64,000 bases of DNA from an uncultured virus (IMG/VR IMGVR_UViG_3300002133_000084) (IMGVR_UViG_3300002133_000084), one strand, 5' to 3'. Shown: positions 1,190 to 49,026, counted from the first letter of the stretch. A program made the numbers and translations. The notes: generated by a model not told the origin, from the letters alone.

Positions 1190-2047
1190 ATGGGCACAAA
1201 TATTACAGCCGATCAGGTATTAACGTGGGGGCGAAAAGCCGCTCAGGATTTAGTTGGTTCTGGGATTCCCCTTGTAAGTAGCATAAGTAAAACCGCAGAA
1301 GATCACTCCCTTAATCTGGAGCAGATCACGCGCGTATGCGAAGCTGCCAACCAATCGACATTTGCTTCATTGCACGGCGATCGAATGGATCGGTTGATTG
1401 GGTTTAAGGTGGCGCACGCAAAGGATGTACTAGAGGGGCTGAATAGTCCCACTGAGAAAGTGGCCATGGCTATGGGCGATGACTATACATTGCCGCCCCC
1501 CAAGGAAGATGATGGCCTGCAGCCCAATATTGGCGAGGTGATGGATACCTACTTTCCTAAGACGGCATCCGATGTGCGCGATCGCGTTACCATCACCGAA
1601 GAAAATGCCAGAATACGGGCACACATCAATAAGGTGGCGGCGGCCAAGTCTGAGCTGGATGCGGAGATGGTTGGGCATCAGGTGGAGTCAACTCGCTCAG
1701 AGGATAAGCTGTTTTACGAGGTAAAAAAGAAATTAGTCGAGGGCAATGACTTCGACGATGTGTACAACATGATTGTCGGTAGTCCGGCCGGCGAGTTTGG
1801 CAGTGATGTCAGTTCGCTCATGCGGCGCGTGCTGGAGCGATTAAAGCAGGACAATCTGGTAGCTGAGGAAACTGAGATCCCGGACAGCGTAAATGCTGGC
1901 ACACAAGAAAACAATCCACACGAGACGGTGGTTAAGCAGGCATGTGAGATTCTCAGGCGCGAGAAGAGAGTTCGCCTGCTAGAGAAGGCCGCACACCTGT
2001 GCAACGTGGAAATGGAAACCCTTTACAATAAGATGAGCCATGTTTGA
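1190..2047 (+). CDS. putative head core/assembly protein, K-x-A rich
   Basis: 285 aa, first gene of the virion region; SKTA, EKVA, PKTA, NKVA, EKAA motifs. Confidence 0.55.
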   Translation: MGTNITADQVLTWGRKAAQDLVGSGIPLVSSISKTAEDHSLNLEQITRVCEAANQSTFASLHGDRMDRLIGFKVAHAKDVLEGLNSPTEKVAMAMGDDYTLPPPKEDDGLQPNIGEVMDTYFPKTASDVRDRVTITEENARIRAHINKVAAAKSELDAEMVGHQVESTRSEDKLFYEVKKKLVEGNDFDDVYNMIVGSPAGEFGSDVSSLMRRVLERLKQDNLVAEETEIPDSVNAGTQENNPHETVVKQACEILRREKRVRLLEKAAHLCNVEMETLYNKMSHV

Positions 2048-2282
2048 CTCAGCATTTCAAAGTGAATTAGAGAAGAATGCCTTTTGGGGCACACTAGCAG
2101 TAGGCGCAGTAACGGCCGTTGCTAAGGCGGGATGGAAAGCAGCAAAGGGCATGGGCAAGTTGATAAAAAACAATAAGGGCGCCACTGTATCTGCTGCTGG
2201 TACTGGATTTGTTTTAAATGATAATCTAATGGGTGCACCGCGCCAATTGCGCCGCGCCGCCCCTGTGCAACACTTAGGATAA
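2040..2282 (+). CDS. leader-tagged small amphipathic protein (putative head cargo)
   Basis: N-terminus MFDSAFQSELEKNA followed by a cationic Gly/Ala helix. Confidence 0.7.
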   Translation: MFDSAFQSELEKNAFWGTLAVGAVTAVAKAGWKAAKGMGKLIKNNKGATVSAAGTGFVLNDNLMGAPRQLRRAAPVQHLG

Positions 2283-3481: not shown

Positions 3482-3862
3482 ATGTTTGACATAGCGTTTG
3501 CTAATGAATTAGAAAAATGTGCCGGAGTCATTGATTCGATTGGTGGCGCAATAAATAGGCATCCAAATCTCGTGACATATGGAGTATTGCCCGCCTTCAT
3601 GGGGGCCGCTGGTGCTTCGTCTTTATATTCTGGCAGGAAGATTAGGCACGAGATGGATCTCCATAAAAGTCAGCAGGCCTGGGCTGGCAGAAAATTAGAA
3701 TCCAATCCAGACAGCGCATTTTATGGAAAAATCAAAAGTCAGCTAGATAAAGAAGTGGCTGATCCAGCCAAGGATGAGCGAATGGGTGCCATTAGTGGCG
3801 GACTTTTAGGTACGCTTATGGGCGGAGCGACTGGGTTGTACTTTAAAAGTAAAATGAGGTAA
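3482..3862 (+). CDS. leader-tagged glycine-zipper protein
   Basis: MFDIAFANELEKCA leader; GAISGGLLGTLMGGATG segment. Confidence 0.75.
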   Translation: MFDIAFANELEKCAGVIDSIGGAINRHPNLVTYGVLPAFMGAAGASSLYSGRKIRHEMDLHKSQQAWAGRKLESNPDSAFYGKIKSQLDKEVADPAKDERMGAISGGLLGTLMGGATGLYFKSKMR

Positions 3863-4172: not shown

Positions 4173-4973
4173 ATGACTATAAAAGATAATTTCTTTGCTG
4201 GGATGTCTAAGCTCGCCAATGAGGACGATAAAAGCTGGAGCCTAACTCCTGCAGCCGGCTTAGCTTTACCGATTATACCTAAAGTTTTGGCGCAAAAAGG
4301 GTATCTCAATAATATGGGAATTGGGAAAACTACAGATGAGGAGATAGCGACTCTCAAGAAAAGTATGGGCGTACCAACAACTATTGTTAATAAGTCCAAT
4401 AAGCGCCCAATAGATTCCTATTTTACCATCGATCGTAAGGCTGAGCTTGATAAGCCAAGGGGGACATTTACTAGAACTCCCAAAGTCGTGGTGTCCCCAG
4501 ATACAAATATTGGCGTTATAGGACATGAGTTAGGGCACGCTAAGAATTATGCTCGCATAACAAATAATGGCAAGAACTGGCAGCGTGGAGAGAAATACAT
4601 GCGATTACTCAAGGGCGCGAATATTAGGGGAGCTCAGGCGGGCACCTTAAATATTGGCAGAATGGCCCTTGGCGGAGAAAGCAATGATGCGGTTGCCGGT
4701 GGCATTGCTGCTGCGTCATTGCCGCTATTAGCAGAGGAGACATCCGCAACAGCTAGGGCGCTTCGTCATATTGTCAAGAATTTTGGATGGAAGAGGGGGC
4801 TAAAGCAGATCCCAACTGCGGCCGCTGCCCTTGGAACATACTACAGTGTGCCGGCCGCTACATTGGCCTCCAACCACCTAGCAAAAAGAAGAGATGCTAA
4901 AAAGAAGGATGAAGACAAGAGCTTTGTCCCAGGCTTGGCGTATCATAGAAAAATTACTCAAGGCAGGGGATAG
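4173..4973 (+). CDS. leader-tagged neutral zinc metallopeptidase-like protein (Zn_peptidase_2-like)
   Basis: MTIKDNFFAGMSKLA leader; HELGH motif plus downstream E-x-x-A-T-x-R-A-L and AALGTY. Confidence 0.7.
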   Translation: MTIKDNFFAGMSKLANEDDKSWSLTPAAGLALPIIPKVLAQKGYLNNMGIGKTTDEEIATLKKSMGVPTTIVNKSNKRPIDSYFTIDRKAELDKPRGTFTRTPKVVVSPDTNIGVIGHELGHAKNYARITNNGKNWQRGEKYMRLLKGANIRGAQAGTLNIGRMALGGESNDAVAGGIAAASLPLLAEETSATARALRHIVKNFGWKRGLKQIPTAAAALGTYYSVPAATLASNHLAKRRDAKKKDEDKSFVPGLAYHRKITQGRG

Positions 4974-5045: not shown

Positions 5046-5306
5046 GTGGCATTGGGTGGAGATCACTATGATGGAGTTGCGATAGGATCTCTTGTGTCTA
5101 TGGCTCCGCAAATTGCTTCGGAATCTTCGGCTAGTATACGGGGACTAAGTCACATAGCTAAGAATTTTGGCTTTCGTCGGGCGCTGCGCGAAGCTCCAGC
5201 ATTGGCCGTGGCATTATCGTCATACCTTACAATGCCGGCCGTAGTTGGATCTGGGATGTATTTAGATAATAAAAGGAAAAAACTAGATGGATCTTCTGTT
5301 CAGTGA
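5046..5306 (+). pseudogene. N-terminally truncated paralog of the upstream peptidase
   Basis: aligns by eye to the C-terminal third of 4173..4973 (ALGG...E-x-S-A...HI-x-KNFG...AL-x-x-Y); lacks HExxH. Confidence 0.65.
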
Positions 5307-5802
5307 TGGTGACATAGAGAAGTTGGCGTTTTCTCTTGGCGGGCTTGGCAAGATGTTTCGACGAGCCCCCAAGGCAAATCAGCAAGTTAACATATCCGAT
5401 GCCGTGCGTCACGGAAAAATAGACACCCTTCGCACGAATGCCGTCGACTCTTCTGGTAAAGGTAGATACAATAAAGTTCAGGCCGTAATGGATGGCGGCA
5501 AAAAGAGAAAGCTCAATGCGGACGAGCGAAGATTCTTGGTAGACAAAAATAAGAGACAAGCCGACATCAGGGCTAGAGTTCAGGGCCCAGTTGCCCCCGC
5601 GCCCGTAGCTGTAAAAGCGGCGCCAGCTGCCAAGGTTTCCCCGACGGCCAAGCCTAAGATTCCCGGATCAGATGTTGTGCCCAACACTAATGCCAAGCCG
5701 CCAGCCAACAATGGTGGCATGTCAAATAAGAATAAATTCTTTGGGGGCGTTGGCCTATTGGGCGCCGGCTATGGAATGGGGGCAATGAATTCCAATGGGT
5801 AA
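5287..5802 (+). CDS. basic protein with variant leader
   Basis: MDLLFSDGDIEKLA; Pro/Ala linker; C-terminal GGVGLLGAGYGMG. Confidence 0.7.
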   Translation: MDLLFSDGDIEKLAFSLGGLGKMFRRAPKANQQVNISDAVRHGKIDTLRTNAVDSSGKGRYNKVQAVMDGGKKRKLNADERRFLVDKNKRQADIRARVQGPVAPAPVAVKAAPAAKVSPTAKPKIPGSDVVPNTNAKPPANNGGMSNKNKFFGGVGLLGAGYGMGAMNSNG

Positions 5803-6094
5803 AACGGATGCATTTTACGTCGGCATGAGTAAGATGGCTGGGTTCTTGGATAGCATGGGGCGCACCGCCAAAAACAATCCGTGGGCAACGCTAGGCTTAG
5901 GCGCTGGTATTGGTGGATATGGTAAGGGGTATTCAAGTAGGGCCGATGAAACTGGCGCAACATACACCGGAAGGGCTACGGCGGCGGCGACAGTTTCTTC
6001 TGTTGCCGCAGCTTATTTTGCCAATAGGCTTCTACGTAAAAACTTATATGATACCAATCAGGCCGGATCGAAGATAATTAGGGCAATAGTTTGA
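5795..6094 (+). CDS. leader-tagged glycine-zipper protein
   Basis: MGKTDAFYVGMSKMA leader; LGLGAGIGG segment. Confidence 0.7.
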   Translation: MGKTDAFYVGMSKMAGFLDSMGRTAKNNPWATLGLGAGIGGYGKGYSSRADETGATYTGRATAAATVSSVAAAYFANRLLRKNLYDTNQAGSKIIRAIV

Positions 6095-6127: not shown

Positions 6128-6525
6128 ATGTTTGACTCTGCATTTAGCAGTGAGCTTGAGAAGTGTGCCGGCCTATTAGACTTAGAGTCCGTTGAGGATG
6201 AAATATGATACGCGTATTTAAGCGGTGAGAAAGAGCAGGATGCGTTAGAATCAATTGACAGGGTTCGGGGCAGGGGCGCGACGGATTCATTCTACGCAAC
6301 CCGTGGCTGACTGGAATACCCACACTTGGCATTGCCCCTCTAATTGCCTCGTCTATCGGCAATGATAGAGTGGCCAGATCGCTAGCCAGAAAGCACACCG
6401 ATATAGCGGGATCTATGGCAAAGGCAAGGCTTATGCGAGAAGAGCAGGCGAATGCCAATATGAGGCAAATGTCTCAAAATGCAGCAATGACGAGCGATGC
6501 ATCGATATTGGCCGGCGAGAGATAG
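6128..6525 (+). pseudogene. disrupted leader-tagged gene
   Basis: MFDSAFSSELEKCAG..., in-frame TGA at 6206-6208, frameshift near 6265-6285, then GFILRNPWLTGIPTLGIAP... to TAG at 6525. Confidence 0.65.
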
Positions 6526-6578: not shown

Positions 6579-9500
6579 ATGTCCCTAGTAAAGCTCACAT
6601 CATTCTCTGCGCTCAATAATCAGGATTTACCTACCGTAGAACCGGTGCGCGGATCTATTAAGCGTGCGTCCTTCGAGACGGAGTACCTGCCTGAGATTTT
6701 AGAGTTCCTATCCAGTCTCAAGAGGGACGATGGGAATATCTATGTCATCATCAATGCATTAGGTGGATCAGAGGCGTGGGGCGAAAATAATAACGGAGAT
6801 GATTTTCCGGTAAATACACCGCCTATTATTGTCGGCGGCAAAACGGAGTCTGATTGGGGGTTGGCCCCAAGTGATCCAGAGGCTAAGTGGGGGCATAAGA
6901 CGTTCGAACAGTTCGCCAAAGTCTTTCGGCAACATAAAAACAAACTGAGCGAGGGGCACCCCGAGTATGGTGAGCCGTTATTTTCGGCATGGAACCCAGG
7001 GATGCACCGAGTGGAGCTTGTTGCGCGCGTGCGCAGAGATGAGCCAGACATTGCCGATGTAATAGATAAGCTCGATCGCAATGAGCCGGCGGCTGTCAGC
7101 ATGGGGTGTTTCCCCGCTGGAACGCCTATTCGGATGGAGGATGGATCAGAAAAGAGCATAGAGCTAATCGAAGAGGGCGATTGGGTACTTACACATAAGG
7201 GCAATGTTAAGAGTGTATCATCTCTGAAGCCTCGCCCTTATCGTGGGGAAATGATGTCGGTTAGGTATTACGGCAGGAGATCCATTGATATGACTCCAGA
7301 GCATCCAGTCCTAATTATACCAAAGGATCTAGCTGTGACTGTAAACCATAAGCACCCTAGATTCTTGGATGATATAGATATAGATAAACTTCAGTGGGTG
7401 CACGCTGATCACCTATCAGTAGATGATGTGGTAGTGGAGCCCACATTTAATGAGGTTCGCACCCCAGATTGGGCCAATAGAAGTCTGGCTAGGATCTTGG
7501 GATATTATCTAGCCGAGGGCTACGTTATTCGCAATAGGGAAAAAGAGATTTGCGGTATAAATTTCACTTGCCATCACGATGACGCTCTACTTGAAGAGAT
7601 CTCCAGTTTAGTTGAGTCGTGGGGATCACCCTACCGAGTTTCCGTGCGCAAGCGCTCTAATTCTGAATCAGCATGCTCTGTTGAAATTTACGACTCTAAG
7701 CTGGCGACGATATGTTACCAGCTGTGTGGATCTTACGCTAGTCGCAAGAAAATAGATCGCACGCTCATGTTGTGGGATATGGATCTGCAAAGGGAATTCA
7801 TTGGAGCGTATATAAATGGTGATGGGTGCCAGAATAGGGGAAAATGGCAACCTGGATCGGTTACTATATCTACGGCATCTATCAGACTATCAGAGCAGAT
7901 AGTTTCTATGTTGAGAAGGTTGGATATATACGCCTCGCATCACTCTATTAAACATAAGCCATCCAAGAATTCAGTTGTTCGCAGAACAACTACAGAGTAT
8001 CAGATTCACATTGGGAAGGGGTATGTCAACCTCTTGGAGCCATATAGCCAAAAAATTCAACCAGTTTCCATTAAATCTGATCAGCGCGTGCGGCGCATTG
8101 GTAATTATAATCTATTTCGCATAAAAGAGGTGTCGCGCGCTCCATTCACTGGGGAAGTGTTCAATTTTGAGGTGGATGGCGATCACTCTTATGTGGCTGG
8201 CGGTATAGCTGTACACAACTGTCGCGTACCATTCGACATTTGCTCTATTTGCGACAATCGCGCCAAAACCACTAAAGAATACTGCGAACACCTGCGCTAC
8301 AATATGAAGCAAATGCTTCCCGATGGGCGCAAGGTGAAAGCTATAAATTACAAGCCCCTTTTTTTTGATATCTCTTTTGTCAGGAAGGGCGCTGATCCCA
8401 CGGCATTTACCTTGGCTAATGTGACGGCGGGAGAGAAGATCGCTTCTTCCTCCATCATCCTATCTGCCAATGCCGGATATGATGCCTATGGCGATATCGA
8501 TGCCGTGTTTGGAAAGGCCGCTGAAGACACATCCAAAACTTCTGGCTATAAAGAATCTGATGAGAAGTCTTCTTCTATTGTAAAGAGGGTTCCCGGGCAA
8601 ATACAGGCTGCCACCTCAGATGAACATCAGTCCATATTAGAGCAATTCGTCCAGAAGGTGTATCCGAAGCTGCAGGAGAAAGAAGCCGCACTACCTGCGG
8701 CCCTCCTGGATAAGTTGGCCAACGATTATTCGATGTCGGAGATATGGAGCTCAATGACGGCGGCCGGTATGTATATGCGCCCGGATGAGTTTCAGCGCAT
8801 TGCCTTAGTTCAGTCTGGACAGAATAAATTGGCCAATGATCTCTGGGACAATGGCTGGGTTTTCCCTCAATGCGATCCCATCGAATCGGATGTTCAAGTT
8901 GACGTCGATCACATTAAGGAGGCTGTGCTAAATGAGCTCTCTGGATCGATGGCCGACAGATCGGGATATCGCCCCTTCTTGATACAGCGAGTTGTATCTC
9001 TGGACAAAACGGCAGGTGAATACTTCGAGGAAAAATACGTCGATCAGGATTATACTCCACCGGTGAATGTCATGCCGGCCCTTTTGGCGCTGGGCGGCAT
9101 TTATGCTGGTGGATCAGTGGCAGCGAAATCTGTTAACCCTGTAAAGATAGAGGAGTGGATTCGACGCTCTATCGAGCGAAGCCCTGAAAACATGCGTCGC
9201 CTGGGCGATATAATTAACAGTAGGGCGAGAAGGGTGAAGGATGTGGTGGCCAAGAAATACTGGATTGCACCGGCGGCCGTATTGGGAACCGCTGGATTGG
9301 CTAGCGTCATAGATACTGGCACGTCCCTTAGGTATAAAGGGGAGATATACTGGGAGGATCCACAAATATCCAAGACGTCATCTGATAAGACGGCTGGATT
9401 CTTTCGTAGGGCTGCCATAGGAATTCCGGCCGCATATATAGCCGCTGGATATCAGGATGTAAAGCAGATGCAGGGGGAGCGGCCCGGATTCATCGGAAGG

Positions 9501-9746
9501 CAAATTCAAAATAATGCTGGCACAGTTGGATTGGGAGCTGCATTGGGTGGCGGAGTGGCATGGAGGGCCGTTGGTGGGCCAGAGAATGTAACAGAGCCCG
9601 CCAAGAAGTTGTGGGGGAGAGCGGCAAAATGGTTAGGTGGGGCAGTGAAGAAGGCTGAACAGTTAGACTTCATGTCCAGCAATGGATTACTGGAAGAATG
9701 CGACGAAGAAGTTGTAGATGCCCTTATTGTAGAGTCCGTAGGGTAG
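6579..9746 (+). CDS. prohead maturation protease with intein and long C-terminal extension
   Basis: extein motifs FRQHKN, AVSMG|CRVPFDICSIC, YCEH, FFDISFVRKGADPTA; lies upstream of scaffold and capsid genes. Confidence 0.75.
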   Translation: MSLVKLTSFSALNNQDLPTVEPVRGSIKRASFETEYLPEILEFLSSLKRDDGNIYVIINALGGSEAWGENNNGDDFPVNTPPIIVGGKTESDWGLAPSDPEAKWGHKTFEQFAKVFRQHKNKLSEGHPEYGEPLFSAWNPGMHRVELVARVRRDEPDIADVIDKLDRNEPAAVSMGCFPAGTPIRMEDGSEKSIELIEEGDWVLTHKGNVKSVSSLKPRPYRGEMMSVRYYGRRSIDMTPEHPVLIIPKDLAVTVNHKHPRFLDDIDIDKLQWVHADHLSVDDVVVEPTFNEVRTPDWANRSLARILGYYLAEGYVIRNREKEICGINFTCHHDDALLEEISSLVESWGSPYRVSVRKRSNSESACSVEIYDSKLATICYQLCGSYASRKKIDRTLMLWDMDLQREFIGAYINGDGCQNRGKWQPGSVTISTASIRLSEQIVSMLRRLDIYASHHSIKHKPSKNSVVRRTTTEYQIHIGKGYVNLLEPYSQKIQPVSIKSDQRVRRIGNYNLFRIKEVSRAPFTGEVFNFEVDGDHSYVAGGIAVHNCRVPFDICSICDNRAKTTKEYCEHLRYNMKQMLPDGRKVKAINYKPLFFDISFVRKGADPTAFTLANVTAGEKIASSSIILSANAGYDAYGDIDAVFGKAAEDTSKTSGYKESDEKSSSIVKRVPGQIQAATSDEHQSILEQFVQKVYPKLQEKEAALPAALLDKLANDYSMSEIWSSMTAAGMYMRPDEFQRIALVQSGQNKLANDLWDNGWVFPQCDPIESDVQVDVDHIKEAVLNELSGSMADRSGYRPFLIQRVVSLDKTAGEYFEEKYVDQDYTPPVNVMPALLALGGIYAGGSVAAKSVNPVKIEEWIRRSIERSPENMRRLGDIINSRARRVKDVVAKKYWIAPAAVLGTAGLASVIDTGTSLRYKGEIYWEDPQISKTSSDKTAGFFRRAAIGIPAAYIAAGYQDVKQMQGERPGFIGRQIQNNAGTVGLGAALGGGVAWRAVGGPENVTEPAKKLWGRAAKWLGGAVKKAEQLDFMSSNGLLEECDEEVVDALIVESVG
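7107..8219 (+). mobile_element. intein (371 aa) with LAGLIDADG homing endonuclease
   Basis: starts CFPAGTPI; block B TPEHP; LGYYLAEG and FIGAYINGDG; ends FNFEVDGDHSYVAGGIAVHN followed by Cys. Confidence 0.95.
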
Positions 9747-9803: not shown

Positions 9804-9869
9804 CTTATATCGAAGATTATGGGTAGCTTAGCGCGCCTATAACTATCACAATTTGTGGAGGAAACACAC

Positions 9870-12500: not shown

Positions 12501-12551
12501 TAGGGCCGCCAAGCAATTAGCTATAACGATCACTATTTGGGGAGGAAAGAT

Positions 12552-13508
12552 ATGTCTCTCAATTTCGCTGCGCCCACCAACCGGCAGATGGTAGAATCTC
12601 TGCGTACGAGCGAGGGCCAGAACAAGTTCGCTCAGAAAGCTGGTGAGTACATACGCGACAAGTTGCGCGAAACCAGCGTCTTCGATCAGATTTTGGCTCC
12701 GCAGCCAGTCACCGAAGATGAGTTGGTGCCGGGTATTTCTGACGGCTCCAGCACAACAGTTCCGGGCAATACCAGCAACACCCAGGGTGACACAGTTCAC
12801 GTTATCCGCGACATCCAGATCGGCGCCACGGCGATGCTCATGGATTTCCGCGGCCAGCCGAAAGCTCAGTTCATCAACGGCCGTCGCTTTGCGATTCCGT
12901 TTGGTGTAGTCACCACACAGCGTTACGAAAAAACACAGGAAGAGCTCCTGGCGTCGAAGTACGACATCCTGAAAGTTCTCGAAGATACCGCGTATCTCGA
13001 AACGCACACGCAGAAGGACGTTAAGTTCCTCGATTATTGCGAGCAGGCCGTCGCTACCACTGGCCAGGCCTTGACGGCCGACGGCCCGATGCAGCGCGAC
13101 ACGTTCCGCGCCATTCAGCACCCGGCGTTGCAGAACCAGTTGCAGTCGACTGTTCTATTGATGTCCAAAGCGGCCTTTACGGACTTAGGCCTGTGGGATA
13201 GCATCGACTTGGACTCGAAGGTTTCGGAAGTTACGGAAAACGGTTACGTGATGGCCAAAGTGGCCGGCATGAAGTACGTCATCAGCCTCAAGTCGAGCTT
13301 GTTCGACACCTACGCCGGCGGCAAATTGGCGACGACGAAGGTTTGGGCGTTCCCCGATCCGGAATTCTTGGGATATAACTTTTTTCTCAATGAATATCAG
13401 GTATGGAATTCTTGGGAAGCCAACTTGTGGCGCTTCCAGGGTTGGCAGACAATCGGTGCCGGTTTTGGTAATATCAACGGCATAACGAAAGTCACCGTCA
13501 CGTATTAA
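12552..13508 (+). CDS. major capsid protein
   Basis: ~318 aa from ATG after GGAGG; protease-scaffold-decoration-capsid-neck synteny; C-terminal G-x-G-x-x-N-x-x-G-I-x-K-V pattern. Confidence 0.75.
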   Translation: MSLNFAAPTNRQMVESLRTSEGQNKFAQKAGEYIRDKLRETSVFDQILAPQPVTEDELVPGISDGSSTTVPGNTSNTQGDTVHVIRDIQIGATAMLMDFRGQPKAQFINGRRFAIPFGVVTTQRYEKTQEELLASKYDILKVLEDTAYLETHTQKDVKFLDYCEQAVATTGQALTADGPMQRDTFRAIQHPALQNQLQSTVLLMSKAAFTDLGLWDSIDLDSKVSEVTENGYVMAKVAGMKYVISLKSSLFDTYAGGKLATTKVWAFPDPEFLGYNFFLNEYQVWNSWEANLWRFQGWQTIGAGFGNINGITKVTVTY

Positions 13509-26172: not shown

Positions 26173-28174
26173 GCATGAGTTCAAGCTATTTTTGGAGGGC
26201 GTTAAGACTCCCTGTGTATCTGCCCAGATATCCATAATGCAGGATATGCCGGCCACGGCCACACTTCAGATACCGGCAACCCCGCTATCCTTTAGGATTA
26301 TGCCGCGCACAGTTGTACATCTTTTCTGGAGGGACACAACGGGAGATGGAGGCTGGAGACTTCTTTTTGAGGGGGAGGTAGTAAAGAGAGGGTTTAGTTA
26401 CCGATCCTCTATGCGCACAACCACCATCATGTGCCAGGATATGACGATATATTGGCAGGGGGCCTATAGATATTTTTTCGATATAAGAAGCTCCGTCCCT
26501 GACTCCCATACGGTTATGCGCAAGTTTTACGCCCTAAATGTTAATTCAGACAAGGGAGCGCAGATACTCGATAACACTGTCGAGGTGGGCAACATATTAA
26601 TTGACGCCATCAATGAGGCTATTGATCCAATTGACAATAAGCAGGGATCACTGTTGGGTGGGATGAGATTCTTATTCCAAACAATGGAGGAAATAAATAC
26701 ATATTTCTATTCTGGCTCAAATCGTATGAAGCTGCGAAACAAGATAAAGGGCGTGCACAATAAGGTGGCCAATGAAATTTTACGCCAAATGACGAAGGGG
26801 GTGAAGCGAGACTTAGATCTTCTTCGCTCTGATGCTGCCACTTTGTGGGGTATGATCATGGCCCTCTTGGGGAAAACATATTACAGCTTTGTACCTTGCC
26901 CGTCTCCCGTGTATTTCAATTCCAAGGATGGAAGTGGCACCCCTAATGTAGACTGGAAGAATCTAAAGGATGGAATTGGCGGATTGGGATCCTCCCTGTT
27001 CATACCAGAGATCTTCTCTTCGCAGCCCCCGCGGTGCAATGTGTTCCTTCCTGCCGTGGTGGAATATTTCAATTTCACTGAGGATTTTAAGGCGATACCG
27101 ACGCGCACGATTGTTCGACAGCAGACGGAGGGCCTACCGACGGTTCACTATGCCCCGGTTGGACTAGAAAACAACATACGAAGCGATAGCGTAAAAGAGT
27201 TTATGCTGGACGAGGAGTTGCTTTTGGGCGTAAACCTCAACTCTTGGGAGCTATCATCCGCAGAATTAGCCGCACGCAAGGGCGCCTCCGATCCTCCGGC
27301 AAGTGGCGAGGAGAAGGAGGAAGTCGTGGGTACGCGAAGAGAGCAAGACTTTATCGTCAATCGAGTGATAAATTTTGCTCACCATCGCGCTCGCGCTGAG
27401 GCCAGATCTGGTAATGGCGGCGGCGAGTTTAATCCATTCCTTTGCGTAGGACTTCCATCAGCTGTAGTCGATCGATTGGGAGGGGTGATCGTTGGCGATC
27501 TAACTCAGGCCACTCACATTCTGGACTTTGCCAATGGAACCGCTGCAACCAACTTCACCATGGAGCGCGGGCGCTGGCTGCACTTTCCACATCCATCCGA
27601 TTCGACGCCAGACTATTTAAAGTGGGACAGTGAGGATGAGGGATTATTCGACACAAACTACCCCACTTGGTATGATCCATCCACTTTCTCTGATGAGTTT
27701 ATTGGCAAGAAGGTGTATTCGGAGATTTTCGGATATGGAGAAAGCCAGAATTATGGCGGCATACGAGAAGTAGATGAAGAAGGAAATCTAGAGTCCTTGG
27801 AGTCTGCATTAAAGAGAGTGTTGGGAGAGCACATTTCCAGTGGCGAAAGCGGTATAGATCACGCACTTAAATTTATGCATAGGGAAATTGCCACGGAATT
27901 TGAGACATTTCTCGCCCTTGGATCAGAGCCTAGCTCAGAGGCATTGCTCGAGGAGTTAAAGGAAGCTGAATTAAACAAAGCGTCTGTATGGGCACAGAAA
28001 AGAATAGATGTCACGTCAGAGCAGTGGCAAAACCCAGACGGGGCCGATCAGCCCATTAAGTGGAATGCGCGCGAGGAGGGCGAGGTATTAGGCCCGTTCT
28101 TACAGGAGCGCCAGCTGTGGGCCAAAAGTTATAATGCGGAGGTAAGTATTACAGCACATGCATTCTCGCCATAG
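26159..28174 (+). CDS. baseplate hub-like protein
   Basis: KLFLEGV...ATLQIP...LLFEGEV...CQD N-terminus; C-terminal FNPF-x-x-VG-x-P and THILD. Confidence 0.6.
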   Translation: MAARKHEFKLFLEGVKTPCVSAQISIMQDMPATATLQIPATPLSFRIMPRTVVHLFWRDTTGDGGWRLLFEGEVVKRGFSYRSSMRTTTIMCQDMTIYWQGAYRYFFDIRSSVPDSHTVMRKFYALNVNSDKGAQILDNTVEVGNILIDAINEAIDPIDNKQGSLLGGMRFLFQTMEEINTYFYSGSNRMKLRNKIKGVHNKVANEILRQMTKGVKRDLDLLRSDAATLWGMIMALLGKTYYSFVPCPSPVYFNSKDGSGTPNVDWKNLKDGIGGLGSSLFIPEIFSSQPPRCNVFLPAVVEYFNFTEDFKAIPTRTIVRQQTEGLPTVHYAPVGLENNIRSDSVKEFMLDEELLLGVNLNSWELSSAELAARKGASDPPASGEEKEEVVGTRREQDFIVNRVINFAHHRARAEARSGNGGGEFNPFLCVGLPSAVVDRLGGVIVGDLTQATHILDFANGTAATNFTMERGRWLHFPHPSDSTPDYLKWDSEDEGLFDTNYPTWYDPSTFSDEFIGKKVYSEIFGYGESQNYGGIREVDEEGNLESLESALKRVLGEHISSGESGIDHALKFMHREIATEFETFLALGSEPSSEALLEELKEAELNKASVWAQKRIDVTSEQWQNPDGADQPIKWNAREEGEVLGPFLQERQLWAKSYNAEVSITAHAFSP

Positions 28175-28865
28175 TCAAGAAGAGTTGTATTGGAAATGGA
28201 AGCAGTCGGATCGCAGTGAGGATCTGTCTGAGCTAATCCAGTCCTTTGATCCTATGATCAAAAATAAAGTATTCCAGCTTGGATCTACAACTGTGCCTAA
28301 TTCTGCCGTAGAAGCAGAGGCCAAGAAAGAGGCTATCCAGGCATTTAAAACATGGGACAGCGACAAAGCTGGATTGTCTACACATGTGGGGAATAGGCTG
28401 CAGAAGGTGGATCGATATGTAATGGATCGCCAGTCAGCTGGGCGCATGCCAGAGCAGCATATATTGCAGATGGGGCAATTTAGGGAGGCGGAGGATAGGC
28501 TTAAGGAAGAGAAGGGGCGCGATGCCACCATGGACGAGCTAGCCGATCACCTCAAGTGGACGCCGGGGCACGTATCCAAGATACGGCGCTCTTCGCAGGG
28601 ATCTGTAAATATATCTATCGATCCATCCCTAGAGGAAGTGAACCCCAATTATGGGGGTGATTTTGCCATGGACGTTTCAATGAAATACGTCTATAGGGAT
28701 CTGTCTCCGCAAGAGCAGAAAGTATTCGATCACACCTTTGGATGGAATGGGGAATCTGAGAAGAAGACAAATAAAGATATTGCCATGGCTATGGGGGTAT
28801 CTGAATCATTGGTGCGCAAGGTAAAGGGCAAGATTTATAATCAAATGAAACCTTTTGTAGGGTAA
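28158..28865 (+). CDS. sigma70-family (group 3-like) RNA polymerase sigma factor
   Basis: region 2 AIQAFKTWDSDKAGLSTH; region 3 GRDATMDELADHL; region 4 LSPQEQKVF...KDIAMAMGVSESLVR. Confidence 0.85.
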   Translation: MHSRHSQEELYWKWKQSDRSEDLSELIQSFDPMIKNKVFQLGSTTVPNSAVEAEAKKEAIQAFKTWDSDKAGLSTHVGNRLQKVDRYVMDRQSAGRMPEQHILQMGQFREAEDRLKEEKGRDATMDELADHLKWTPGHVSKIRRSSQGSVNISIDPSLEEVNPNYGGDFAMDVSMKYVYRDLSPQEQKVFDHTFGWNGESEKKTNKDIAMAMGVSESLVRKVKGKIYNQMKPFVG

Positions 28866-30648: not shown

Positions 30649-30650
30649 TA

Positions 30651-31067: not shown

Positions 31068-31073
31068 GAAGCT

Positions 31074-34000: not shown

Positions 34001-34535
34001 CATCGATGGGGAGCCAATAGGGAACCCACTGGTAGAGGGGACGGATTATTCACTAACCATTGTGCGCCCCGAGATGCGCTTCTCTGCCTCTGAGCACAAT
34101 GCTCTGACTTTCCCGTCCGCTCGCGTGGGATCCAATGTTCGCGTGTACTATTCCTACTTCCAGTACATAAGCGCCATTCAGGATTTCATTGACAGTGAGG
34201 CTCAACGATTAACGGCAGCCGAAGTTTTAGCCAAGGCCTTTATTCCTGCCTACGTAGACTTTACAGTGCAAGCTGGCGGGTATGGTATATCCGATGATCA
34301 AATGGAAGATGCGATTGTCGAGTTTATAAATGGACTAGGCACAACATTGGAAGTATCGGACGTAACAACAGAGATAGCTACGCAGGGGGCAACTTCTATT
34401 GTATTGCCGCTGACGATATCTGTGGAAGTCCATTCTAACGATGGACTAAAGACGTCAAATTCAGTTACAAACTCTCTCACAGTAGAGGAAAATGTGCGCT
34501 ATATCGCTCGCGACATCAACGTTGTTAGAATTTAA
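31074..34535 (+). CDS. baseplate J-like wedge protein with large insertion
   Basis: RPGSAQRDLL, MDALAANFF-x-x-R, VTNP...ETNAEL; internal ~55-aa duplication (NV-x-STAGF...YTG-x-T-x-TSFTGC). Confidence 0.8.
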   Translation: MNDIDFLIQKILEDNPRAEVRPGSAQRDLLIVPHSKLLEPVEEERSTIARAQSIANYATMTDEEMDALAANFFIYRDGGVNARTQVKVGFSSPTSVELKAGDTFQNSDSTKEYSLESDYYISSSSMSSNLESDGLYYTALLDVVATSPGDEYSVDADELIEMPLGPVSLSRVTNPTASSYGWHKETNAELFARIPDSISTRQILNTPGTRSRLIEQFRHIQEIFLVGHGHSLMKRDETFEHSSTGGASILPVSNFYGKLRGDTNNRNKAYQLVSTKVEPDIADFGLEVSQLDYTKMYRVNDSSSAALSTNVLFEDDFTRSGEFVPATAYLTLDSDGTAVVEVDTPALFNIGDLVRLIDDDTAEVQRIILDISEKNITFTDVVDNNLETAQNARVERVLRDEDVGNEWFESDHTLNLGIEVDGPQATVDSGKLVLGKASYATDNTLHGVSDAALEDSIEEVIKTALMNAGYNPSDTADVKTEVENLTYIVNTETTGDTLLAAATINVTSTAGFDTSGFAYIDGTRFDYTGVTGTSFTGCSGGVPATTAPVDVEQGIIPSIKANQVISVSPVVQRYLEQQNGLRITATMSTTDTSAEGKFSYILTRKKNTNPASYYYGFGMAWRISKADTGTTTTTTAVTALDATDVNVASTAGFSSSGVAILDGTPFSYTGITATSFTGCVGVVATTNPVNVNPSLPNVYLVDNGDLPNNANAYLARATTLMKANTDYSVEILITPPTPGDLVDESSAVEIRVWETSGSRPVSPTLSYGAYVPSSARGGYEEDDMFGISVYDCNGDQWYYDDLKIESVQATYPHYLLRFDAAAFSDKFKVSVTGRAWGEVEEVQTYGMAVKVWDDSSSGWVDVGTYTGTSLGTIETVSGYDAADYSDVNGYVYVMVSGQNPWGTVRDAQLEVDYASIFDDGITGVHVGNKVDAYMRSVDQIQSGFVDINSIQDIEYVNVAQGFSLPVASIDAVFLLDIDGEPIGNPLVEGTDYSLTIVRPEMRFSASEHNALTFPSARVGSNVRVYYSYFQYISAIQDFIDSEAQRLTAAEVLAKAFIPAYVDFTVQAGGYGISDDQMEDAIVEFINGLGTTLEVSDVTTEIATQGATSIVLPLTISVEVHSNDGLKTSNSVTNSLTVEENVRYIARDINVVRI

Positions 34536-34546
34536 GGACAATAAAC

Positions 34547-34807
34547 ATGGATAAGGTTGCAGGGTTTTTTTCTAAAATTAAGAAGATGATGGCTGGTAGT
34601 GGGGCCCAACCAATGGGCCATGCTCAGCTATTAGCCAAATCTAAAGCGGCGAGGGGAGTAGCTGATTACAAGGCCCCATCCGTTGGTAGTAGAAAGGCTG
34701 GATTTTATCCCACTGGAAAGGAATTGAAGCGCCAGAGCTTACGCCAAGAAAATCCAGGGATGGCCATACCAAGTGAAAATGCACTAAGTGGATGGAAGCG
34801 CAGGTAA
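34547..34807 (+). CDS. small basic protein with minimal leader
   Basis: MDKVA then amphipathic GFFSKIKKMMAG. Confidence 0.6.
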   Translation: MDKVAGFFSKIKKMMAGSGAQPMGHAQLLAKSKAARGVADYKAPSVGSRKAGFYPTGKELKRQSLRQENPGMAIPSENALSGWKRR

Positions 34808-35646
34808 TGTTCTTTGAGTCTTTCTCGCGCGAGATGAATAAACTTGCCGCCGAATTTGGGCATAGGACATCTGAGGCCGGGTTTCACTCTATGATTCAGT
34901 CTGGAAAGATTGTATCTGGACTAGAGGCCGCTTTAACAGATAAGCTGGATACATTCGAGAGTGGATATGTTGCAGGGCAGCGCGAACCAATAAAGGCATT
35001 AAACCTCTCGTCGGAAGAGTTGTTGCTATTGGACGTGACAACGGAATCTGATTCACCCATTGCGCGTAGCGATGTATTAAGATCGATCGCTGAAGAGAGG
35101 GGGGTATCAGAGCAGCAGGTAGCCTTTTCCCATTTGAAGAGTCGCTATAGGGAGGCCTTGGATAGATTGCGCGGAATACATCTTGAGCACGGTGGAGAGC
35201 ACGCAGATATAGCTAGGGCGAAAAGCTATGGAATTAGCAAACTTACACCCTATATATTCGCCAATAAGGGCGGATTAATGCCAACTGATCGTGGTTATGG
35301 GGAATTTGGCATTTTATTTAATTCCAAGAAGTTCTCCAACTCTGGAAAATGGAATACGGTGCCCAACGAACACATATCTCTCCCTGATTACAAGAATAGA
35401 AAATTGCCCCACGTACCACTGGGCAGGGCAACCTTCGTTGTACCCGATAATAGATTGGATGAGATTCAGGCAATGTATCCAGAGAGAAGGATAGTTCCAG
35501 AGTCCAGTGTGGGCGATCGGATCTTATCAGAAGAGTCCCCCTTAAGTGCCAGGTATTGGCTTAGGGCCAAGAAGACGGTTGGTAGATTGCTGTCTGGATC
35601 GGGTATTGGCAGTGAATACTTTGATCGAAAGATGAAGGCTGAGTAA
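34807..35646 (+). CDS. leader-tagged protein, possible ADP-ribosyltransferase-like fold
   Basis: ATG at 34807 gives MFFESFSREMNKLA; H-x-T...I-x-x-S-G-x-I-x-S start, YIF, YG-x-x-x-I-x-F, NEH. Confidence 0.5.
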   Translation: MFFESFSREMNKLAAEFGHRTSEAGFHSMIQSGKIVSGLEAALTDKLDTFESGYVAGQREPIKALNLSSEELLLLDVTTESDSPIARSDVLRSIAEERGVSEQQVAFSHLKSRYREALDRLRGIHLEHGGEHADIARAKSYGISKLTPYIFANKGGLMPTDRGYGEFGILFNSKKFSNSGKWNTVPNEHISLPDYKNRKLPHVPLGRATFVVPDNRLDEIQAMYPERRIVPESSVGDRILSEESPLSARYWLRAKKTVGRLLSGSGIGSEYFDRKMKAE

Positions 35647-37046
35647 TGTTTTTCGATGCATTTAAATTAGAGCTCGAAAAACTGGCCACGGAATTGCGTC
35701 CACACCAGGAAGAGGCTATTAGAGCTCTATCTAAGTCTGATGCACTTTTACTGTATCATGGGCTGGGATCCGGAAAGACGCTCACGTCCCTATCAGCGGC
35801 CGATCGCCTCGGATTGCCCCTCACTATGGTGGGGCCAGCGGCATTAAAACACAATCTCCCCAAGGAAAAGGAAAAGCATAGCATAAAAGCCGATGCCAAC
35901 TTCTACACCTACAACAAGCCCCCCGAGCAGGGCGGCGGCATTGTGGCCTTTGATGAGGCGCATCGCATGGGGCAAATATCATCTAAAAGATCTCGCCTTG
36001 TAGATATACTGGAAGGCGATAAGAAGCTCTTGATGACGGGTACGCCTATACGCAATAGGCCATCTGAGTTGATACCCATCATGCGCGGCCTGAACATAGA
36101 CGTTCCCAGGGACGTTAAGGCCTTTAACGATAAGTACATTGAAGAAATTGAAGAGGATCCAGGATTCTTCGCCCGAGTATTTAGGGATGTAAAGCCGGGC
36201 GTTAAGTTTAAGGGAAAGAATCTTAAAGAACTAGGAGACTTACTCACTGGCAAGGTGCACTATCATGCCACTGGAACCGATGGATTCCCCTCCGTAGTAG
36301 AAGAGGAGATCTTAGTGGACATGACAGATAAGCAGCAAAGTGCACACGATATGGCCATGAAGAATAATCCATCCCTTGCGTATAAGATTAGAAATGGAAT
36401 AGCCCCATCGAAGACGGAAAGCACCCAGCTCAATGCCTTTCTAACGGCTTCGAGGCAAATATCCAATATACCGGGTAGCTACAATCTTTCAGCTACAAGT
36501 GAAGATGCGCCCAAGATACAGCGCGCGGCCGATGAGGTGATAAAGCACCGTAGAGATAATCCCAATTATCGCGGCGTAACCTATTCAAACTTCATCGATC
36601 ACGGCATTCGCCCAATGGCCGATGAGCTTGGGCGCCGCGGTGTTTCGTATGGCGAATTTACCGGATCACTAACCGACAAAGAAAAGGCCCGCATCATAAG
36701 TTCGTTTAATAGCGGTGAAATAGAACATCTATTGATATCTGGCGCGGGCGCGGAGGGCTTAGATCTCAAGGGTGTGCGCCTTATGCAGCTAATGGAGCCC
36801 CACTGGAATGAGGCTGTATTAGATCAGGCGGCCGGCAGGGCAATTCGCATGGGATCCCATGATCACCTGCCGGAAGATGAGCGATCTGTAACTGTGCAAA
36901 ACCTAATAGCTCGCCCCAAAGAGACTGGATTGTTATTCAAGAGTCGCGATAAGGCTACCGATGAATACCTGCGCGATAGGGCGAGCGAAAAACAAGAGCT
37001 GAACAATCAATTCTTAGACGTATTGAGACGGGTGGGATCTAAATAA
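35646..37046 (+). CDS. leader-tagged SF2 (SNF2/NPH-I-like) helicase
   Basis: MFFDAFKLELEKLA leader; HGLGSGKT, DEAH, TGTP, AEGLDL, QAAGRAIR. Confidence 0.9.
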   Translation: MFFDAFKLELEKLATELRPHQEEAIRALSKSDALLLYHGLGSGKTLTSLSAADRLGLPLTMVGPAALKHNLPKEKEKHSIKADANFYTYNKPPEQGGGIVAFDEAHRMGQISSKRSRLVDILEGDKKLLMTGTPIRNRPSELIPIMRGLNIDVPRDVKAFNDKYIEEIEEDPGFFARVFRDVKPGVKFKGKNLKELGDLLTGKVHYHATGTDGFPSVVEEEILVDMTDKQQSAHDMAMKNNPSLAYKIRNGIAPSKTESTQLNAFLTASRQISNIPGSYNLSATSEDAPKIQRAADEVIKHRRDNPNYRGVTYSNFIDHGIRPMADELGRRGVSYGEFTGSLTDKEKARIISSFNSGEIEHLLISGAGAEGLDLKGVRLMQLMEPHWNEAVLDQAAGRAIRMGSHDHLPEDERSVTVQNLIARPKETGLLFKSRDKATDEYLRDRASEKQELNNQFLDVLRRVGSK

Positions 37047-37738
37047 TGATTAATGAAAAATTCTTCAATGGTATGCAGAAGTTAGCGTTTAACCTCAGAG
37101 ATGCCAGTAAGGTGAGTCGAGTTTTTAAGGCTAGGCAGATTCCTCAAAAGAATCTACATAAAGATATGATTGGGGAGTTCGTTGGATACAACAAAGATGT
37201 AAAGGGCTTTGCTGCAGCCACCGGCCAGGATGTCAATCAGATAATGAATACGCAAAAGGGAATTGGAGTATCCCCAGGAAAAGTGAGAGCCCCCAAGAAG
37301 GGTGATGCCCTTAGATTTTTTAGAGGAACCGCATCTAAGATGAATGGAGTAGATTTAGGCCCAAAGGTAGAATTCACTGGACGTCAAAGAAGGATGCTAG
37401 ATGGAGTGACGAAAGGGCATGAAGTTGATGAAACAATAGTAAAAAACAAAGCAGAATTTATGCCACTTGGACATTTGTCTCCGGACGTGATCTTGAGGGA
37501 GCATAATAAGATCGTCACAATGCCGGAAGAATTTGAGCCAGTTAGGAGATTCCTGCGAAAGGTTAGGAATACTCTCGGAGAGGCGCCAGTCGCCGAGGCC
37601 CATATGAACAATGCCTCTGGGCCTAAGGGTTTCACATATGGTAGAGGGCAAAGGCTTAGTAGGCATGCCAGAAAAAGAATGACAGATATTTTAGAGAGAA
37701 AAAATAACGAGATGATTGCAGCTCAGGCTGCGGAATAA
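37046..37738 (+). CDS. leader-tagged basic protein of unknown function
   Basis: MINEKFFNGMQKLA leader; GHEVDE, GH and REH clusters. Confidence 0.7.
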   Translation: MINEKFFNGMQKLAFNLRDASKVSRVFKARQIPQKNLHKDMIGEFVGYNKDVKGFAAATGQDVNQIMNTQKGIGVSPGKVRAPKKGDALRFFRGTASKMNGVDLGPKVEFTGRQRRMLDGVTKGHEVDETIVKNKAEFMPLGHLSPDVILREHNKIVTMPEEFEPVRRFLRKVRNTLGEAPVAEAHMNNASGPKGFTYGRGQRLSRHARKRMTDILERKNNEMIAAQAAE

Positions 37739-37755
37739 TATGTGGGATCTGAATA

Positions 37756-37905
37756 ATGGCTGACGTTAAAAAGCTGTGGAACTTTATATCTGACGCATGG
37801 CTCCTTATGGATCGAGCCGACAGGCGATCCATCGAGCAGCTGTGGGCTGGATATCAGGAAATAATTGCACAGCTATCTATTAATCTCAATACGGGTGGGA
37901 TCTAA
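37756..37905 (+). pseudogene. truncated duplicate of the 5' end of gene 38121 (49 aa)
   Basis: first 45 codons match 38121-38255 with 4 synonymous differences, then run into a copy of 37028-37053. Confidence 0.85.
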
Positions 37906-37908
37906 ATA

Positions 37909-38121
37909 ATGATTAAAGAAAAATTTATGGATGGAATTGCCAAGATGGCGTCGGCTGCGGGCAATTATGAAAAAGAATTAAGCGTAGCGGCCTGGAATGA
38001 GTTTACTGGTAGAGGTGGGGAGAGTAGGCGAGACGTCATGAGGCGGCACGGGATGCATGTGTTGTTGGGTGGGAAGCCCACTGACTTTATTAGCCTACTT
38101 ATAGATGGAAGAATTAGGTAA
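37909..38121 (+). CDS. leader-tagged short protein
   Basis: MIKEKFMDGIAKMA leader; upstream DNA duplicates 37028-37053. Confidence 0.6.
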   Translation: MIKEKFMDGIAKMASAAGNYEKELSVAAWNEFTGRGGESRRDVMRRHGMHVLLGGKPTDFISLLIDGRIR

Positions 38122-40619: not shown

Positions 40620-40673
40620 TAGCATCTTTTTCTTGAAAACACACTCGAGAATCTACTTTCTTTAAGTATTAAC

Positions 40674-40692
40674 ATACCCTGAAATTGGGTAT
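40674..40692. promoter_or_regulatory. palindrome copy 6
   Basis: ATACCC TGAAATT GGGTAT in intergenic region. Confidence 0.7.
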
Positions 40693-40733
40693 AAAATACT
40701 GAATTTTAGGAAATTGCAAAAAATTGAGGAATT

Positions 40734-41318: not shown

Positions 41319-41329
41319 GAATGTCATAG

Positions 41330-49007: not shown

Positions 49008-49026
49008 ATACCCTCAATTGGGGTAT
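49008..49026. promoter_or_regulatory. palindrome copy 7 (overlaps start codon)
   Basis: ATACCC TCAATTG GGGTAT(G). Confidence 0.7.

Follow-up and report, generated by a model that had tools for sequence, protein, structure and literature searches.

The stretch of DNA analysed here (hereafter the window) comprises 64,000 nt of an uncultured virus (IMG/VR record IMGVR_UViG_3300002133_000084), and the contig carrying the protein of interest is 152,839 bp long. It derives from a large and highly divergent tailed phage, whose genes for head, tail, baseplate, fibre, lysis and integrase occupy a plus-strand block that begins at position 1190 and extends to about 55,700. Within this late block lies an open reading frame (ORF) for a Swi2/Snf2-type superfamily 2 (SF2) ATPase of 466 amino acids (the helicase), whose N-terminal leader recurs on about ten other ORFs with mutually unrelated bodies. 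A first-pass annotation, made from the sequence alone, had described a helicase ORF here with intact motifs and a leader joined directly to its core, and this description holds: the ORF lies where it had been placed (35646–37046, plus strand), and the strings quoted from it are all found (ELEKLA-TELRPHQ at residues 9–21, LLYHGLGSGKT at 35–45 and EPHWN...QAAGRAIR..SH at 384–405). The direct junction of leader and core is likewise borne out by the ORF, the alignment and the structural model, and every helicase motif is invariant or near-invariant in homologue alignments and present in the window protein.

By family, this ORF is predicted to encode a bona fide Swi2/Snf2 double-stranded-DNA translocase, without special poxvirus kinship. 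Pfam matches to SNF2-rel_dom (E 4.7e-15, 55.9 bits against a cut-off of 24.9), Helicase_C (E 8.1e-15, 55.5 bits against 23.5) and ResIII (E 1.7e-07) all exceed their cut-offs, and PHROGs places it in phrog_62, "DNA helicase" (1.7e-40). The motif columns, judged in alignments of 31 and 83 homologues, comprise Q21; GSGKT at residues 41–45 with G41, G43 and K44 (motif I); P64 and A65; DEAH at 103–106 with D103 and E104 (motif II); TGTP at 131–134; SGAGAEG at 365–371; and Q394, R398 and R401. An AlphaFold2 model from 83 sequences (mean predicted local distance difference test score, pLDDT, 94.7; predicted template-modelling score, pTM, 0.90) places residues 2–15 in a separate, lower-confidence helix (pLDDT 63 over residues 1–10 and 78 over 11–20), while all later ten-residue blocks score at least 88 and mostly above 92. 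As modelled, the protein adopts a two-lobe Snf2 fold, a judgement made overall and not residue by residue for the Snf2 helical insertions. A sequence search of solved structures returned Rad5, Rad54, vaccinia NPH-I (C-lobe only, E 8.7e-8) and the Sulfolobus Snf2 core as best matches; a family-profile search returned Sth1, ISWI, the Sulfolobus core, Snf2 and Ino80; and the Foldseek comparison was led by Mot1, ISWI, Chd1, PBAF, Ino80 and CSB. All 48 listed Foldseek rows (ranks 1–50) are Snf2-type motors, counting two poxvirus polymerase-complex entries, with query-normalised TM-scores of about 0.6–0.7 in most rows (0.36–0.54 in four) and E-values down to 2e-21.

The specific resemblance to poxvirus D6 and D11 that the first-pass annotation had proposed dissolves into generic Snf2 likeness, in that Sth1, ISWI, the Sulfolobus Snf2 core, Mot1, Chd1 and CSB all rank higher. 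Vaccinia NPH-I (6rfl_Y) occupies the 21st row of the profile search, through its C-lobe only (query residues 332–425), and Foldseek rank 40 (E 7.3e-19), followed by 7amv_W at rank 41, both with similar scores. We rejected a classification of the helicase as VETF-s/NPH-I-like, as these matches are no better than those to dozens of cellular remodellers. Like the window helicase, vaccinia NPH-I (D11), the VETF small subunit (D6) and Escherichia coli RapA belong to the Snf2 family of ATPases; all three work for a multisubunit RNA polymerase, and the two poxvirus enzymes are carried inside virions. The poxvirus pair has no specific kinship to the helicase, and the comparison with it is an analogy, not a relationship.

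The leader is a motif of about 15 residues, F-x3-hydrophobic-x-K-x-A, and its distribution within the window is strongly positional. In a six-frame scan of the window, the leader element occurred solely at the starts of plus-strand ORFs. Across the 51 late-block ORFs, the strict form [FWY]-x3-[LIMFV]-x-K-x-A has eight matches within the first 26 residues (1326 positions) and none at 15,613 internal positions, and it is absent from the window's 21 other ORFs; looser forms of the motif yield extra N-terminal copies. The conserved leader residues are encoded by differing synonymous codons, which argues that the leader is conserved as protein rather than as DNA, with selection acting on the peptide.

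The ORFs that carry this leader, together with the other features under discussion, are collected in Table 1. In Pfam and PHROGs the leader proteins match nothing above threshold, even at E-values up to 5, other than weak or sub-threshold peptidase matches; among these is a sub-cut-off Zn_peptidase_2 match (E 0.0035) of the protein related to the HExxH protein in locus L035. The 26-residue mini-ORF that precedes the protease gene could be what is left of a gene resembling gp221 of Salmonella phage Arash, or else a leader-only peptide. The basic protein encoded directly after the helicase has a largely unstructured ESM Atlas model (pLDDT 0.38) with no usable match, and homologous parts come after the helicase in two relatives, L019 (28% identity over 236 residues, E 3e-12) and L020; its neighbourhood with the helicase is conserved.

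Table 1. Leader-bearing genes, head genes, repeats and other features of the window (ORF coordinates count from the first letter of the window).
Position	Strand	Feature	Basis
2040..2282	+	leader small protein, 80 aa, with hydrophobic Gly/Ala-rich segment	motif
3482..3862	+	leader protein, 126 aa	motif
4173..4973	+	leader protein, 266 aa, with HExxH; possible zinc metallopeptidase	weak Peptidase_M48 match at HExxH, E 0.16
5287..5802	+	leader protein, 171 aa	motif
5795..6094	+	leader protein, 99 aa	motif
6128..6208	+	26-aa mini-ORF, a complete leader and 12 further residues, shortly before the protease gene	motif, translation
6579..9746	+	putative T4 gp21-type prohead protease, 1055 aa, with intein at about residues 178–547 (nt 7110–8219)	Pfam, homology, fold of relative
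9855–10442, 10501–11007, 11020–11625, 11628–11978	+	four acidic scaffold-like proteins	repeated [E/D]-K-x-A
12537..13508	+	major capsid protein	phrog_2522; homology to Arash gp226
28158..28865	+	sigma-70-family factor in the baseplate block, start and stop tightly packed with its neighbours	Pfam Sigma70_r3 and Sigma70_r4; phrog_351
34547..34807	+	ORF with doubtful, degenerate leader, 86 aa	motif
34792..35646	+	leader ORF, 284 aa, no known family, motif from 34807	stop overlaps helicase start
35646..37046	+	Swi2/Snf2-type SF2 ATPase, 466 aa (range counts the stop codon)	Pfam, PHROGs, AlphaFold2, Foldseek
35646..35690	+	N-terminal leader of the helicase, residues 1–15, helix at 2–15 in the model	shared motif, pLDDT
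37028–37088 / 37891–37951	+	direct repeat: 61-nt copy (80%, at 37891) of the helicase 3' end and the junction with the next leader	direct repeat
37046..37738	+	leader basic protein, 230 aa	start overlaps helicase stop
37754..37894 / 38119–38259	+	direct repeat: 141-nt copy (96%, at 37754) of the 5' end of the gene at 38121, a baseplate or fibre gene	direct repeat
37909..38121	+	leader ORF, 70 aa, within the duplication scar	motif, repeats

We then considered the leader across relatives. A protein search with the helicase gave 759 homologues at E ≤ 1e-5, the closest of them 44–57% identical and on contigs of up to 228 kb; 80 IMG/VR loci were taken with 10-kb flanks (labelled L), and 14 IMG/VR records carry the labels G001–G014. 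In the phage collection, the only close relatives of the helicase are in Salmonella phage Arash (34.5% identity) and Pseudanabaena phage PA-SR01 (31%). Among 120 listed homologues, four are fragments, 16 have at most six residues before the core and hence no leader, 73 have hydrophobic-x-K-x-[A/S] just before the core, and 27 lack it by this simple test. The first-pass annotation would have been undone by a leader belonging to the conserved fold of all homologues; instead, because 16 of the 116 N-terminally intact homologues do without it and the model shows an appended helix of lower confidence, the leader is no required part of the fold, and it is a shared tag. That the K-x-A element is kept in 73 of 116 homologues indicates an optional but old accessory element of the helicase family and not a recent fusion.

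Enrichment at N-termini extends to these relatives. Over the window and the 80 loci, the motif has 56 N-terminal and 85 internal matches, a 5.6-fold enrichment per position, and a position-specific leader matrix scores at least 14 at 81 of 1896 ORF N-termini as against 31 of 13,574 internal windows, a comparison that is partly circular in that the training seeds were N-terminal. Each related phage has its own flavour of the leader, common to its helicase and the adjacent ORFs (as in L004, L019, L041, L050, L035 and L036). Across 54 clusters of helicases dereplicated at 90% identity, helicase leaders resemble the leaders of other proteins in their own genome (mean BLOSUM62 score 21.3 over 23 pairs) far more than those in other genomes (8.35 over 817 pairs; label permutation p ~0.0005). 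In these clusters, the scoring matrix found a leader on 14 helicases and another leader ORF in 29 loci, with both in nine; these are low estimates, since the matrix misses some genome-specific flavours such as those of L004 and L005. A nearby leader ORF within 10 kb was present for 9 of the 14 leader-positive clusters and 20 of the 40 others, which is no clear difference.

The clearest single case is the complete 210-kb relative G002, which has seven copies of one leader flavour of 11–12 residues, six of them at 179.9–187.4 kb around the helicase, within 7.5 kb and just upstream of the terminase and head genes. In this genome the generic regular expression gave only a twofold N-terminal enrichment, so it is the specific flavour alone that is telling. 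As a separate observation, two G002 ORFs (185892–186422 and 79166–79549) carry a copy of the leader flavour at their extreme C-terminal end; these may be miscalled starts, frameshifts or remnants.

The setting of the leader ORFs in the window recalls head assembly in phage T4. There, the prohead protease gp21 removes a capsid-targeting sequence, the element that attaches to the scaffolding core. In the window, leader clusters flank a putative gp21-type protease and the four scaffold-like proteins that lie between it and the capsid gene. The protease has Pfam intein and LAGLIDADG matches, with homology to Arash gp222 on both flanks of the intein, and the intein sits directly after an invariant VSMG motif, which is likely the catalytic serine motif; an intein at this point, next to what is probably the catalytic serine, would make maturation of the head dependent on protein splicing. 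Of 120 listed relatives, about 17 have intein domains or an intein-bearing length (~940–1011 residues). The fold was modelled on an intein-free relative from locus L036 (43 sequences), not on the window protein (overall pLDDT 70, with 77–93 in 14 of 19 ten-residue blocks over residues 40–230). The N-terminal domain of this relative has T4 gp21 (5jbl) as its top three Foldseek rows (E 6.6e-3, probability 1.00), and VIA-align superposes the relative on 5jbl_B with Z 11.6 and a root-mean-square deviation of 3.1 Å over 147 of 164 residues, the herpesvirus proteases coming next at Z 5–6.7.

The core of the leader also recurs within this head module. We compared counts of [E/D]-K-x-A with those in composition-preserving shuffles: the first and third scaffold-like proteins each have four copies (0.19 expected, p 0.0002, and 0.74 expected, p 0.005), and the protease has five (0.70 expected, p 0.0002). 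Two small ORFs of G002 that adjoin that phage's head genes are similarly rich (195820–196287, seven observed and 0.32 expected, p 0.0005; 196294–196596, four observed and 0.25 expected, p 0.0010). We infer the scaffold role of the four acidic proteins from their position and composition. A leader-like K-x-A in the N-arm of the capsid protein fits three of four capsid proteins compared, the window's own being shifted by one residue, and a link between this arm and the leader is offered as an idea only. In its search, the capsid protein matched only Arash and, weakly, Bacillus phage G.

The likeness to T4 is therefore one of arrangement. As in T4 (IPI–III and Alt, with gp21), a short N-terminal peptide stands on unrelated late proteins, a protease predicted to have the gp21 fold is encoded beside the scaffold-like and capsid genes, one (here putative) cargo protein is an early-acting enzyme, and the scaffold-like proteins contain repeats of a short motif, the leader core. 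The differences are that the T4 peptide ends in L/I-x-E whereas the leader reads F-x3-hydrophobic-x-K-x-A, with targeting and cleavage putative, and that here a 52-kDa Snf2 motor would be cargo, the protease has an intein and the phage is only remotely related to T4.

Evidence from virions comes from Arash, the only cultured relative, whose gp217 is the orthologue of the helicase. In the Arash study, liquid chromatography–tandem mass spectrometry of particles found the gp217 helicase with 1148 spectra, 38 unique peptides and 100% coverage, on a par with the gp226 capsid protein (1333 spectra); the gp206 RNA polymerase subunit topped all proteins (3516), and the gp216 RNA polymerase subunit (1210) and the gp10 sigma factor (467) were detected as well (PMC10585845). 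The virion-packaged, co-injected ATPase of the first-pass annotation thereby gains indirect support from an orthologue found in particles beside RNA polymerase and sigma factor, while packaging of the window protein itself stays a prediction.

A precedent for the proposed route exists in phage P1, where DarB, a helicase-containing virion protein, enters the capsid by an N-terminal signal: its first 30 residues suffice to carry a reporter into the capsid (PMC9024508). As proposed here for the window protein, DarB, also a Swi2/Snf2-like helicase protein, relies on an N-terminal signal shorter than 30 residues to get into the capsid, and is believed to be delivered by injection (PMC9024508). DarB is a 250-kDa protein with a methyltransferase, its signal having no recognisable consensus with other Dar proteins (PMC9024508); the window protein, in contrast, is a bare motor, and its tag is a recognisable consensus on about ten proteins.

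Links to a phage-encoded RNA polymerase and sigma factor point to what a packaged motor might do. By Pfam, Arash gp206 is a fusion of beta and the N-terminal part of beta', and gp216 is the C-terminal part of beta'. Homologues of the Arash polymerase proteins, true beta and beta' by Pfam, are encoded no more than 10 kb from the helicase in 14 of the 80 loci (nine distinct after removal of near-duplicates), and directly upstream of it in L005, L017–L021 and L035; some such polymerases form a single reading frame of ~2000–2850 residues with an intein. PF00562 (RNA polymerase beta) is found in all 14 tested IMG/VR records that hold the helicase, at one place in 12 of them and at two places in one open frame in G002 and G010. 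As an observation in its own right, the phages of L005, L017–L021, L035, L050–L053 and G001–G014, 128–210 kb in size, carry fused beta/beta' frames of ~1250–2900 residues, several with inteins.

The window encodes a sigma-70-family factor that is 31% identical to Arash gp10 (E 3.6e-20) and occupies the same relative place, within the baseplate block in both phages. Arash gp10 is detected in particles (PMC10585845); the window protein may be a packaged sigma factor. A pairing of Snf2 helicase and polymerase is described for phages of the phiKZ group, with a proposed RapA-like role, the helicase lying beside the beta and beta' genes as here (Iyer et al., 2021; PMC7824862). The present phages belong to another clade (the capsid relates only to Arash and, weakly, to phage G). 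They have fused beta-beta' frames of ~1250–2900 residues by open frame, unlike the split, two-set polymerases of the phiKZ-like phages, and they have a sigma factor, whereas the phiKZ group is without one according to that account (PMC7824862).

We lean modestly toward a reading in which the helicase is a packaged and injected Snf2 motor that is addressed by a T4-like leader and most likely serves the phage's own polymerase and sigma factor. The amphipathic leader of about 15 residues would act like the T4 capsid-targeting sequence, docking the protein to the scaffolding core during prohead formation, and the gp21-type prohead protease would probably trim it at K-x-A, the short motif of which the scaffold-like proteins hold several copies, or close by. 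Once mature, the ATPase would ride in the capsid and be ejected with the DNA. Less securely, its task in the cell might lie on the newly entered phage DNA, where it would cooperate with the phage's own bacterial-type RNA polymerase and sigma factor in polymerase recycling or release, promoter clearing or the removal of DNA-bound host proteins—a job that would parallel that of RapA for E. coli RNA polymerase and of NPH-I and VETF for the packaged poxvirus polymerase. Packaging, leader removal and the transcription role of the window protein are what we infer from these comparisons.

Several observations weigh against this reading. By sequence profile and by Foldseek, the helicase is not specifically NPH-I-like, nor does it appear specifically RapA-like, RapA being absent from its 60 best PDB profile matches and from the 48 listed Foldseek rows. 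The leaders have no T4 L/I-x-E cleavage consensus. No RNA polymerase gene lies within the 64-kb window (tblastn, 1e-4), the co-occurrence with polymerase may only reflect common descent, since all tested relatives have it, and PA-SR01 has its helicase in the head gene block with PF00562 not found. Of the 272 Arash proteins, 116 turned up in the preparation, ribonucleotide reductases among them, and the authors themselves grant that abundant enzymes may have been carried over (PMC10585845). Arash gp217 itself is without a leader, so the leader was not needed for its entry into the preparation, and no clear leaders were found in the 75 kb of Arash examined. The K-x-A element beside the core is kept in 73 of 116 homologues, also where the helicase is internal to a larger protein, and for the helicase it could be a family-specific helix or linker. 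Likewise, the within-genome likeness of leaders could come from recombination of leader-coding segments and not from a shared receptor, and scars of such recombination exist in the window.

A different account, which we regard as improbable, is that the helicase is an unpackaged, ordinary intracellular enzyme of replication, recombination or repair, its place among tail genes a recombination accident and its N-terminal helix a part of the enzyme. The retention of K-x-A beside the core across the family, including internally in fused forms, is what such an account would expect, and a suggestion in print is that, in jumbo phages, Snf2 helicases take over the part of UvsW in recombination (Iyer et al., 2021; PMC7824862). 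It would also accommodate the insertion of the helicase block relative to the Arash gene order, duplication scars included, and the possibility that the Arash particle list contains contaminants. It accounts less well for the presence of the same leader on about ten non-helicase ORFs, at N-termini only, for the co-variation of leader flavours within genomes, for the recurrence of the motif in scaffold-like proteins and protease, and for the overlap of the helicase start and stop with adjacent leader ORFs in the late block. Nor does it sit easily with the Arash orthologue, whose spectra are on a par with those of the capsid protein (PMC10585845).

A second account keeps packaging and injection and changes the task. 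In distant relatives the helicase is joined to other domains: 34 longer forms were listed and 26 scanned, and the fused partners found are LigD 3'-phosphoesterase, an ATP-dependent ligase domain, InPase, Zn_peptidase_2, 2H phosphoesterase, a P-loop kinase-like domain, DnaJ and DUF6321, with several effector domains in one polypeptide in L024, L025, L027, L029, L033, L034 and L042. Polyvalent proteins have the same domain sets, with Swi2/Snf2 as a hub domain and DarB as the prototype, according to Iyer et al. (2017; PMC5512222). The window helicase is a single-domain protein of 466 residues with little beyond the motor core; whereas in its distant relatives it is a domain of such proteins, alongside InPase, ligase, phosphoesterase and zinc peptidase, the modules of the window are separate genes, each with its own leader. 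Could the packaged ATPase then be an anti-defence or nucleic-acid-handling module like P1 DarB and the polyvalent proteins, one that protects or repairs DNA or RNA or strips host nucleases, and that has no part in transcription? We consider this unlikely, though the two roles are not mutually exclusive. The fused relatives speak for it, as do PA-SR01, where the head-block helicase comes with no RNA polymerase match, and the profiles phrog_62 and phrog_11801, which are both long and multidomain. Yet Pfam scans of the window protein and of 26 fused forms revealed no methyltransferase domain, the partner of DarB, and RNA polymerase is adjacent in 14 of the 80 loci. Independently of this, the PA-SR01 helicase (L002), whose gene lies between head genes, has a 142-residue N-terminal extension with two R-R-x-F-L-K-N stretches that resemble twin-arginine signals.

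Leader-like motifs in the fused proteins touch on how such polypeptides may be built. They occur ahead of the helicase in L027 (residue 854), ahead of InPase in L029 (residue 490), behind the helicase in L025 (residue 527) and at residue 314 of the 554-residue L019 protein, the exact start of the half that resembles the window's basic protein. That such motifs mark module joints is suggestive only, in these four fused cases; a leader at module joints is not met in the accessible part of Iyer et al. (2017; PMC5512222).

The genomic position of the helicase bears on a further account. Gene order in the window is kept relative to Arash (the ORFs at 19564 and 26159 corresponding to gp4 and gp8, the sigma gene to gp10, and those at 31074 and 38121 to gp13 and gp14), except that an additional block, 34547–38121, which contains five leader ORFs, separates the gp13-like gene from the gp14-like one. 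In this block, two direct-repeat pairs are the recombination scar of an insertion or duplication of this cassette, and recombination through leader-coding DNA may move cargo genes around. As the helicase stands beside head genes in both Arash and G002, its tail-block position in the window looks secondary. This undercuts the idea that it is an injected genome-entry motor at the ejection channel, pulling the genome of about 150 kb into the cell, which we deem very improbable. In its favour, Snf2 enzymes translocate on duplex DNA without unwinding it (Iyer et al., 2017; PMC5512222), and the gene here lies in the baseplate and tail-fibre block, near small hydrophobic Gly-rich leader proteins that are possibly membrane-active. 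But the gene is by head or RNA polymerase genes, not tail genes, in Arash, G002 and most relatives, and the protein has no anchoring domain, its 466 residues being about the motor core alone.

Returning to the packaged motor addressed by a T4-like leader, we also consider, more tentatively and as short of probable, a wider form of it: that the leader is a portable address-and-processing tag used across an uncultured clade of 150–210-kb phages that encode RNA polymerase, copying the scaffold repeat, such that any bearer of it would assemble along with the scaffold core, and cut by the gp21-type protease, and that polyvalent relatives, their joints marked by this element, are polyproteins cut in the head. 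Were this true, the injected proteome of uncultured phages would be readable directly from sequence, with the cargo here being the Snf2 motor, a zinc peptidase and small membrane-like and basic disordered proteins, together with packaged polymerase and sigma factor. The arrangement is a variation on known kinds of system: the T4 capsid-targeting sequence, P1 DarB, the phiKZ-group pairing of Snf2 and polymerase, and polyvalent proteins. Few capsid-addressing or injection systems are known (the T4 capsid-targeting sequence, the P1 DarB signal and phiKZ-like propeptides), and they serve as protein-delivery tools. A genome-specific and recognisable tag would list injected cargo from sequence in a large uncultured clade, provide a packaging signal open to testing, and hint at the way in which modules are joined into polyvalent proteins and released from them by cutting. 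The present clade would also be a second phage lineage, after the phiKZ group, in which a Snf2 motor travels with a phage multisubunit RNA polymerase, here plus a sigma factor, in parallel with the packaged transcription apparatus of poxviruses. Apart from the Arash paper, the literature searched contained nothing that describes this leader or the packaged apparatus of the clade.

Regarding regulation and host, a promoter and terminator scan of positions 30000–42000 was uninformative (25 promoter-like sites against 19.6±4.2 in shuffled sequence, and 13 terminator-like sites against 8.9±3.6). Among contigs of metagenome-assembled genomes, relatives occur only on phage-sized contigs labelled with various phyla, which yielded no host assignment and no sign of integration; two of the IMG/VR records are classed as provirus. 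In the window, a small PAS-domain protein (53117–53581) and a tyrosine integrase (54774–55682) lie at the end of the late block. The sole minus-strand gene of the structural block (23771–25408) encodes a protein of 545 residues with a C-terminal response-regulator receiver domain. Further along, a 1688-residue fibre-like protein (43757–48823) carries a glycoside hydrolase family 130 domain, and the next gene (49025–51310) encodes a laminin-G/concanavalin-like domain.

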